DNA of 51,502 nucleotides from Escherichia coli (GTDB taxonomy: Bacteria > Pseudomonadota > Gammaproteobacteria > Enterobacterales > Enterobacteriaceae), in assembly GCF_048403405.1 (NCBI RefSeq), contig NZ_CP183133.1; one strand, given 5' to 3'. The notes below the pieces were generated by a model, which was not told where the DNA came from, did not search any database, and was given only the letters and a program-made list of their open reading frames with translations. The stretch's first letter is position 1. The number at the start of each line of letters is the position of its first letter. Positions 20,382-21,425 of the stretch are shown here, piece after piece. The translations under genes were made by a program, and so were the position numbers.

Positions 20382-21068
20382 CTATTCTTCGTCTGGCAAT
20401 CCGGTGCTCTCTAAGCTATCAACAGATTCCATCAATCTAAGAGAAGCATGATATTTGTGTTGACTGCGGGCATAACACAGCTCAGCATTAATGCTCCGCG
20501 CACGCGCGATTGAAAGCATACGCCAGGCAGACCAGTGATGGGCAGAGAGGTCATCATGCGGCATAGAACAGATCTGCCGGAGCTCACGCGAAAGACGGAT
20601 TGCCCTGAGGCCAAGCCGGGATGACTGTTTATTAATTTCTGACAGACCGTTACTACCATCATATGGATTGTCATTTCCAAACGCTGACTCGATTGACTGC
20701 TTGGCTTCCTGCTGCAGAACCGGCATCTGACTCAGACGGAACATAAGCTCCGGAGGAAGAGATCGCCAGTCACCGTCTATGCCGTCATAGCTCAACTCCG
20801 GTAGAGTATGATTCACTCTGAAATGCCCGTGTTCGGGTTCGTTAAATCCGGACTCGTAAGCTGAATAAACGCATCTTTGCGCAAATCGCTCAAGAAGAAA
20901 GACCAGCCGGGTTGCAATAAAATATCGCTCCCTCTGCATTTTATCTTCTGACGCCTTCTTCTCCCGAATCAGGGTAAACCGATGGGAAATGTACTGGCTC
21001 CCTAATGCGCCTCCTATACCTGCCAGCGCTGTAATCACAGGTATCCACACGGAAATTCCGTCCGCCAT
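20382..21068 (-). CDS. Hypothetical protein with N-terminal transmembrane helix (about 228 aa)
   Basis: ORF 20382..21098; start could be GTG 21098 or ATG 21068; hydrophobic segment ISVWIPVITALAGIGGALGSQYI followed by a soluble domain with no recognisable motif. Confidence 0.45.
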   Translation of the reverse strand: MADGISVWIPVITALAGIGGALGSQYISHRFTLIREKKASEDKMQRERYFIATRLVFLLERFAQRCVYSAYESGFNEPEHGHFRVNHTLPELSYDGIDGDWRSLPPELMFRLSQMPVLQQEAKQSIESAFGNDNPYDGSNGLSEINKQSSRLGLRAIRLSRELRQICSMPHDDLSAHHWSAWRMLSIARARSINAELCYARSQHKYHASLRLMESVDSLESTGLPDEE

Positions 21069-21131
21069 ATTTGTTCCTATATAGAGAAATCCCGCCACAA
21101 GTGAAAAGGTATGTAACAGTGGTGAACACTG

Positions 21132-21425
21132 CTACCAATCTCCATCAAGCATTTGCATCCATGCATGGCCTGAATCTGCAAGCTCAGTCAAAACTGACGA
21201 CTTTCCTGGAGGTATTTCATTTTTAGCGTTGTAATTCACCCGACAGGCATTTTTGCGAAAGTTCCAGCTTTTAAGATAAGGATCATAGCTGGCTGCTACC
21301 AGGTTGTCCCAGGTGATAATAAGGCGATTGTACTTGCCATTGTCACGGAGCCAGAGACGAGTATGACCTAAGCATTTCAGCGCCTCATATATTTCGTGTA
21401 TGTCGACCTGCTTTCGTTTGACCAT
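21132..21425 (-). CDS. Hypothetical protein (97 aa), first gene of a two-gene operon
   Basis: Strong RBS GGAGGAGAG before ATG 21425; 33-bp gap to the downstream gene. Confidence 0.5.
   Translation of the reverse strand: MVKRKQVDIHEIYEALKCLGHTRLWLRDNGKYNRLIITWDNLVAASYDPYLKSWNFRKNACRVNYNAKNEIPPGKSSVLTELADSGHAWMQMLDGDW

Follow-up and report, generated by a model that had tools for sequence, protein, structure and literature searches.

Two small genes, here called orfA and orfB, stand immediately upstream of the multimer resolvase gene resD on an IncR plasmid of Escherichia coli (assembly GCF_048403405.1, contig NZ_CP183133.1), and the comparisons reported here give good support to the conclusion that they form an exchangeable cassette in the slot that ccdAB occupies in other rfsF-resD operons. 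The region studied is one stretch of an IncR plasmid backbone, and all positions follow the numbering of the whole 51,502-nucleotide (nt) stretch of DNA analyzed, hereafter the window (Table 1). As to function, we tentatively favor, at a probability short of even, a reading in which orfA and orfB form a conflict cassette (abortive infection, defense or exclusion), with OrfB as a membrane effector, the OrfA-type protein as a fast-evolving cytoplasmic modulator, and transcription that also feeds resD. Three rival explanations, namely a classical toxin-antitoxin pair, accessory factors of ResD, and two independent hitch-hiking genes, were all ranked lower.

orfA and orfB are the front of a three-gene operon ending in resD, not a free-standing pair. 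The first gene has a strong Shine-Dalgarno sequence (GGAGGAGAG, 7 nt ahead of its ATG). For orfB, the ATG start that gives 228 amino acids (aa) has its own AGGA Shine-Dalgarno sequence, lies 63 nt after the orfA stop and is the start used by RefSeq; an alternative in-frame GTG start at 21098 would give 238 aa. The resD start follows the orfB stop after 11 nt, and the resD Shine-Dalgarno sequence overlaps that stop. The original prediction, made from the letters of the window, had described a soluble 97-aa protein with a strong ribosome-binding site and a protein of about 228 aa with one N-terminal transmembrane (TM) helix, and both descriptions hold. Its spacing of 33 bp between the two genes applies to the alternative GTG start and not to the 228-aa protein, and its two-gene operon has to be extended, given the closeness of resD and the conservation of the orfB-resD junction across genera.

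Indeed, in more than 25 loci from more than 13 genera of Enterobacterales, a ResD orthologue (68–93% identity) begins −3 to +61 nt after an orfB homologue (33–60% identity). The hosts include E. coli, Citrobacter, Rahnella, Pantoea, Enterobacter, Buttiauxella, Hafnia, Mixta, Kluyvera, Erwinia and Kosakonia, and the junction was seen in loci L002–L013, L018 (resD remnant only), L020, L022, L027–L036, L038, L040, L041, L045 and L054, with overlapping orfB stop and resD start codons in many of them. A small open reading frame (ORF) of 90–125 aa usually precedes orfB, and VapBC genes often lie divergently upstream; the divergent vagCD arrangement of the window recurs in L002, L008, L011, L022, L033, L041 and L045. 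In L018, from the chromosome of Serratia fonticola (6001–7600), the orfA+orfB pair is present and resD is reduced to two pseudogene fragments. Because orfB homologues recurrently precede ResD across hosts, with even resD pseudogene fragments lying downstream in the S. fonticola chromosome, we regard the unit as one of three genes.

The third gene encodes a ResD-type tyrosine recombinase: its orthologues carry PF00589, and the ResD of the window is 87.6% identical to the ccdAB-linked ResD of pHUSEC41-2 and matches pSLT RsdB with a phmmer E of 9e-147. ResD proteins at least 80% identical to it are present in at least 5000 PLSDB plasmids. Positions 20300–21600 are 100% identical to the IncR plasmid pKPS77 and to more than 55 other plasmids of Klebsiella, Enterobacter, E. 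coli and Salmonella. In pKPS77, orfA and orfB correspond to the RefSeq entries WP_020956883.1 and WP_020956882.1, both named 'hypothetical protein'.

The exchange of the DNA between resD and the rfsF region is apparent from a megablast search with positions 19594–21660. It matched 4918 plasmids, only 59 of which covered at least 80% of the query; the remaining plasmids match either resD alone (query 1 to about 735) or resD together with the rfsF-proximal, far upstream end. The flanks of the slot are thus highly conserved in thousands of plasmids, and the DNA between them is replaced wholesale. In pHUSEC41-2 (L023), an F-like plasmid (L044) and pSLT (L050), the slot holds ccdA-ccdB, to which pSLT adds PSLT029/030. 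In ColBM and other IncR plasmids it holds a 116-aa protein and an orfB-like protein. In L014–L017 (6361–7239), behind an orfA homologue (about 73% identity) come a 117-aa protein that weakly matches HamC/DUF3223 in PADLOC (E 1.3e-5), a 169-aa M50-type membrane metalloprotease-like protein, and then resD. L042 (1030–2978) has two OrfA-like genes in tandem, together with a TM peptide of 53 aa and a 334-aa protein anchored by a C-terminal TM segment, and L021 (2280–3284) has a homologous 334-aa tail-anchored protein behind other upstream genes; neither set gave a database match. In L043 (pCMY2-191773, 1878–2906), a 116-aa protein of the second small-protein family described below is followed, in place of orfB, by an unrelated soluble helical protein of 202 aa that matched nothing in Pfam, NCBIfam or PADLOC. 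A separate observation concerns L055 (pKlebA1, 2501–2863), where only the C-terminal 120 codons of orfB are annotated, at about 98% DNA identity to the window and with resD intact; this orfB either has been truncated or is a mosaic whose N-terminal part differs.

The outer edge of the slot is marked by an 18-bp motif, GTGGTACACTTCCGGAAA, which is unique in the window, with no copy expected by chance, and which recurs exactly in 24 of the 53 loci fetched. Where its position was measured, the distance to the first slot gene downstream on the resD strand is about 190–360 bp, as also in the ccdAB-type loci L023 and L050 (pSLT); no exact copy was found in the F-like L044. In IncR plasmids, rfsF has been placed between resD and vagCD, with foreign DNA often inserted beside it (PMC9412624), and we infer that the 18-bp motif may be the rfsF core or lie within rfsF. 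Between the motif and orfA lies an imperfect palindrome made of the paired repeats ATGATGACG ... CATCCGGGTG and CACCCGGTTG ... CGTCATCAT. L054 and L056 both share it, even though a different OrfA-like protein is encoded first in L054; it is therefore part of the operon leader and not of orfA. The palindrome is possibly an operator or a structure of the 5′ untranslated region; its RNA fold was not significant against shuffled sequence (z −1.75). A terminator-like hairpin overlapping the orfA stop was considered as a structured RNA and rejected (z −0.7 against shuffled sequence), and Rfam gave no match in the orfA-orfB region.

Table 1. Features of the orfA-orfB-resD unit and its flank, in window numbering
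Feature	Position	Strand	Description
orfA	21132-21425	minus	97 aa, soluble, basic (pI 8.95) α/β protein; ATG start; first gene of the operon
orfB	20382-21068	minus	228 aa, bitopic membrane protein of the PADLOC PDC-S67 / phrog_33426 family; ATG start
resD	19594-20370	minus	258-aa tyrosine recombinase, plasmid multimer resolvase of the F ResD / pSLT RsdB type; third gene
vagC/vagD	22014-22657	plus	VapB/VapC type II toxin-antitoxin pair, divergent from orfA-orfB-resD on the other side of the rfsF region
orfB TM-helix region	20988-21059	minus	residues ~4-27, ISVWIPVITALAGIGGALGSQYIS, with small-xxx-small G/A motifs
orfB G-D-W-R-S-L-P codons	20754-20774	minus	residues 99-105; most conserved orfB motif
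Conserved 18-bp motif GTGGTACACTTCCGGAAA	21638-21655	minus	candidate rfsF core or operon control region; outer edge of the slot's conserved flank
Leader with imperfect palindrome	21470-21547	minus	inverted repeats I5 and I7; separates orfA from the conserved flank

The F plasmid operon ccdA-ccdB-resD with its rfsF site shares several properties with the unit studied here. ResD of the window is about 88–91% identical to the ccdAB-linked copies, two small genes lie immediately upstream of resD in the same orientation, and the upstream 18-bp motif is common to the ccdAB-type loci L023 and pSLT. In contrast, orfA and orfB are unrelated to the genes for CcdA, an RHH antitoxin, and CcdB, a gyrase poison; OrfB is a membrane protein, neither protein has a known toxin or antitoxin fold, and their pairing is not cognate. 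In pSLT, the operon ccdAB(ST)-PSLT029-PSLT030-rsdB-PSLT032 is polycistronic, and reverse-transcription PCR and western blots established that the genes between the promoter and rsdB are co-transcribed with rsdB and control the level of RsdB (Lobato-Márquez et al. 2016, PMC5065971). The window resembles pSLT in having an RsdB orthologue and the 18-bp motif, but its slot lacks ccdAB, and PSLT029 and PSLT030, which we considered as candidate homologues of orfA and orfB, were rejected as unrelated.

Such a layout invites the explanation that OrfA and OrfB are accessory or regulatory factors of ResD, setting when, where or how much it acts, for example as a membrane tether or a controller of expression. 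The strict synteny with resD, with start and stop codons overlapping in many loci, speaks for this explanation, as does the architecture of parCBA/parDE in RK2. There too the resolvase gene is the last of three, the products of the first two are poorly understood, a type II toxin-antitoxin operon is divergent, and the resolution site is intergenic. The RK2 proteins are nevertheless of other kinds: ParA is a serine resolvase, ParB is a staphylococcal-nuclease-like nuclease and ParC is unrelated, and neither ParB nor ParC has sequence or fold similarity to OrfA or OrfB, in which no DNA-binding domain was found. The genes upstream of rsdB in pSLT do set RsdB levels (PMC5065971). However, ResD orthologues of 87–97% identity sit behind ccdAB or unrelated genes and do not co-vary with OrfA/OrfB, so ResD shows no dependence on them, and orfB-family genes are also found where there is no ResD (a phage, mobile elements and a chromosome). 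We therefore consider a role as ResD accessory factors improbable.

Both orfA and orfB are real, conserved genes. For orfB, this follows from its many homologues with invariant residues and from a confident AlphaFold model (mean predicted local distance difference test score, pLDDT, of 80); the ratio of nonsynonymous to synonymous substitution rates (dN/dS) was uninformative, with only eight substitutions relative to the closest DNA relative. A word-index search found 95 homologues and a profile search 977 cluster representatives. Kyte-Doolittle analysis over 19 residues shows one hydrophobic segment, residues 4–23 (maximum 1.78), and no second one. Seven Lys or Arg residues lie within residues 28–48, directly after the TM segment, and the positive-inside rule accordingly predicts an N-out, C-in topology. 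The remainder is modeled as a four-helix bundle, predicted to be cytoplasmic, with conserved polar residues. In an alignment of 45 sequences (A2), G99, W101 and L104 of the GDWRSLP motif are invariant and D100 and R102 nearly so, and the other invariant residues include H29, R35, E36 and E60. The fold is a generic four-helix bundle without homology to a known toxin superfamily in Pfam, NCBIfam or structure comparisons. A holin/antiholin pair of the T4 T-RI type (T has 218 aa and RI 97 aa) was also considered and rejected: the C-terminal domain of OrfB is predicted to be cytoplasmic, opposite to that of T4 T, no endolysin or spanin gene lies nearby, and the only holin match in PHROGs is a weak one to the N-terminus of a single homologue (E 0.014).

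The first reading of the window had recognized no domain in either protein, and for Pfam and NCBIfam this stands: neither database matched OrfB, nor did Pfam match the whole orfB alignment, and neither OrfA nor OrfB matches a housekeeping family. OrfB does, however, match the PADLOC profile for PDC-S67 (PDLC05063; E 4.9e-28, residues 25–190 on profile positions 11–178 of 203) and phrog_33426, whose function is not annotated (E 2.2e-33); PHROGs gave only families of unknown function. OrfB homologues, including plasmid and mobile-element copies, match PDC-S67 with E values of 2e-17 to 3e-72, the more distant members scoring better (E 1e-60 to 1e-72) than the plasmid clade. PDC-S67 is a phage-defense candidate, put forward as a lone gene found inside BREX, DISARM or type I restriction-modification loci (Payne et al., bioRxiv 10.1101/2024.01.29.577857). 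OrfB is thus like the family over most of the length of its profile, and differs from it in being a divergent branch with a small partner gene ahead and a coupled plasmid resolvase gene. In the window, orfB lies in the resD operon with vagCD as neighbor, and not within or next to a known defense system, as the nomination of PDC-S67 presupposes. The family is present in at least 2097 of the 72,556 PLSDB plasmids (about 3%), every copy seen is annotated 'hypothetical protein', and the literature searched does not mention it.

Several family members stand apart from resD and from any small partner gene. A solitary orfB-like gene adjoins the integrase gene of an element (L048) that also carries primase, Bro-N and Ogr/Delta genes; another lies in L049, in an element with primase, small terminase and integrase genes; and a third lies in a Massilia chromosome (L046). 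In L019, a family member belongs to the nin region of a lambdoid Klebsiella phage and has an ORF for a HolE/theta homologue upstream.

OrfA is hydrophilic (maximum 19-residue Kyte-Doolittle value of 0.34; isoelectric point 8.95). It counts as a gene because its dN/dS of 0.18 relative to the L056 copy (86% identical DNA) indicates purifying selection, because it has conserved homologues, and because its AlphaFold model is confident (pLDDT 83). The family motif is helix-x-C-G-H-x-x-L-W-L-R ... W. The superfamily profile gathers 158 clusters, all from Enterobacterales and all annotated as hypothetical, which are held together by weak but consistent similarity with L16, W25, A45 and W54 conserved. 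The family is hypervariable, and is duplicated in tandem in L056 and L042. Pfam and NCBIfam searches with OrfA gave no match, profile and fold comparisons revealed no RHH, HTH, AbrB or Phd fold and no match to a known antitoxin family, and no known relative of this α/β family was found.

The relationship between the two genes bears most directly on how they might work. On plasmids, homologues do co-occur: a small soluble ORF lies nearly always 35–65 nt upstream of orfB. These small proteins form two unrelated groups, the OrfA superfamily and a helical family of 116–125 aa (phrog_36524), and the type of partner does not track the relatedness of orfB. L054 (pKPoxa-48N2) combines an OrfB of 97% protein identity with an upstream OrfA-like protein that is about 20% identical; L056 (CP021777) has an orfA of 93% identity, then a further OrfA-like gene, and after it an orfB whose identity is just 42%; and in L014 the orfA homologue is paired with unrelated proteins. 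The orfA-orfB pairing is regular, not cognate. An exclusion, abortive-infection or toxin-immunity module had been proposed for the pair at the outset; the membership of orfB in PDC-S67 and the position of the pair at the place of ccdA-ccdB lend this proposal indirect support, whereas a simple cognate toxin-immunity pair is argued against by the swapped partners (L054, L014) and the solitary orfB-like genes (L019, L046, L048 and L049).

The same evidence bears on a classical two-component toxin-antitoxin system for post-segregational killing, in which OrfB would be a membrane-damaging toxin and OrfA a labile antitoxin and autorepressor, the two replacing CcdAB. The operon position is that of ccdA-ccdB, ahead of near-identical resD genes, and two adjacent co-directional genes, the small one first and the larger second, are separated by only 63 nt. 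On plasmids, nearly all orfB loci have a small ORF ahead of the gene, the palindromic leader could serve as an operator, and partner shuffling occurs among toxin-antitoxin families. However, a constitutively toxic protein is not expected to stand alone, so the intact orfB-like genes without a small partner in L046, L048 and L049, and behind a HolE/theta homologue in phage L019, weaken this explanation. Partners are also swapped in L054, L056, L014 and L043 and the unrelated 116-aa family takes the place of orfA in many loci, which is not the obligate cognate co-occurrence of a toxin and its antitoxin. Neither the absence of an antitoxin-type fold in OrfA nor the lack of known toxin homology in OrfB fits such a system, and the leader palindrome stays conserved when another first gene is present. 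A classical toxin-antitoxin pair is therefore unlikely.

A further explanation takes orfA and orfB as two independent hitch-hikers in a recombination hotspot formed by the rfsF-resD interval; the orfA-like genes would then serve a purpose unconnected to OrfB, such as anti-defense or host modulation. The highly mosaic content of the slot (L043, L021, L042, L014 and PSLT029/030), the lack of correspondence between partner type and orfB identity, and the foreign DNA inserted beside rfsF in IncR plasmids (PMC9412624) are all as this explanation would have it. Yet the small soluble ORF 35–65 nt ahead of plasmid orfB is more regular than random accumulation predicts, and the orfA+orfB pair persists in the chromosomal remnant of L018 though resD has decayed. 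On balance, we regard independent hitch-hiking as less probable than the conflict cassette but as the most probable of the three rivals.

The surroundings of the related loci are rich in conflict genes; VapBC, CBASS-like SMODS+S_4TM, AIPR, RES and Fic genes are among those next to the slot. In L004–L007 (Citrobacter plasmid contigs, about 3029–4960), a CBASS-like pair (an SMODS nucleotidyltransferase gene and an S_4TM effector gene) and a colicin/immunity/lysis cluster adjoin the small-ORF-orfB-resD unit at the place of vagCD. The pair in L018 is flanked by an AIPR gene and a HEPN_RES_NTD1-RES gene, a setting that resembles a defense island.

The conflict-cassette reading is favored because OrfB belongs to PDC-S67 and has solitary relatives that travel as cargo on mobile elements, and because orfB and orfA diverge much faster than their surroundings (33–60% identity for orfB against 68–93% for the flanking ResD and 85–100% for VagCD) among neighbors rich in defense and toxin-antitoxin genes. 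In this model, OrfB would be the effector, anchored in the inner membrane with its N-terminus out and its C-terminus in. On a trigger, the G/A-rich TM helices of OrfB may oligomerize and thereby compromise the inner membrane, with the OrfA-type protein acting on the OrfB bundle as a cytoplasmic, quickly diversifying modulator or sensor. Since resD lies beyond the cassette as seen from the promoter region, transcription of the cassette would also supply ResD, by analogy with ccdAB-rsdB in pSLT.

A number of points weigh against this reading. The free swapping of partners, seen in L054 and L014 and in the 116-aa proteins that precede orfB in L002, L020 and L027, fits a variable sensor and two independent genes equally well, and the orfB-resD synteny could be inherited backbone structure and not functional linkage. 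One TM helix by itself gives little ground for proposing membrane disruption. PDC-S67 is one of 145 'guilt-by-embedding' candidates that were explicitly put forward as untested (bioRxiv 10.1101/2024.01.29.577857). Neither the name PDC-S67 nor the RefSeq accessions appeared in the literature searched, which included the supplements of the PADLOC paper, and this literature reported no experiment on any member of the orfB family.

Elsewhere in the backbone, several features accompany the unit. Just upstream of vagC, at 21854–21973, imperfect direct repeats of 17 bp (consensus CATATGCCAAGCATCTG) coincide in part with long inverted repeats; we take them to recall the 17-bp repeats of the crs resolution site of pSDL2, and they could equally be a VagC operator. 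Beyond vagD, a 240-aa ORF on the plus strand (22720–23442) starts 63 nt after vagD and marks the end of the backbone segment on that side; judged from its translation, it presumably resembles an IS26-type transposase. On the other side of resD, a 288-aa ORF of replication-initiator type (17650–18516, minus strand) would be repB by its position in the IncR backbone, and a short tandem-repeat array beside it (about 17220–17700), seen as repetitive ORF translations, presumably represents the IncR iterons. Rfam further detected group II intron domains D1–D4 at 12525–12750 on the minus strand (RF02005, 186.6 bits), consistent with the IncR retA intron, and an IS1222 ribosomal frameshift element at 4210–4327 on the minus strand (RF00383), consistent with an IS3-family element of IncR plasmids.

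Our analysis newly delineates the slot upstream of resD as variable, and its occupants orfA and orfB remain orphans that are widespread. A bolder proposal, which we think has perhaps one chance in several of being right, is that the rfsF-resD operon of IncF, IncR and IncI-type plasmids is an unrecognized cassette-exchange platform, in which the stretch from the rfsF-proximal leader to the opening codons of resD is swapped among thousands of plasmids and collects conflict modules (ccdAB, PDC-S67-type effectors with OrfA-family partners, and orphan pairs), and that OrfA/OrfB would be a new two-component, membrane-acting defense or addiction system with OrfA as its diversifying specificity subunit. 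Orphan gene pairs at the ccdAB position are candidates for new conflict systems. Many orfB carriers are resistance plasmids of clinical Klebsiella, E. coli and Enterobacter, and a defense or addiction module in this slot, if confirmed, would be a widespread and unrecognized factor in how resistance plasmids persist or in how their hosts resist phages, with a bearing on phage therapy. Whatever its function, a replaceable slot with conserved flanks offers a testable model of how maintenance and defense modules shuffle between plasmid backbones.

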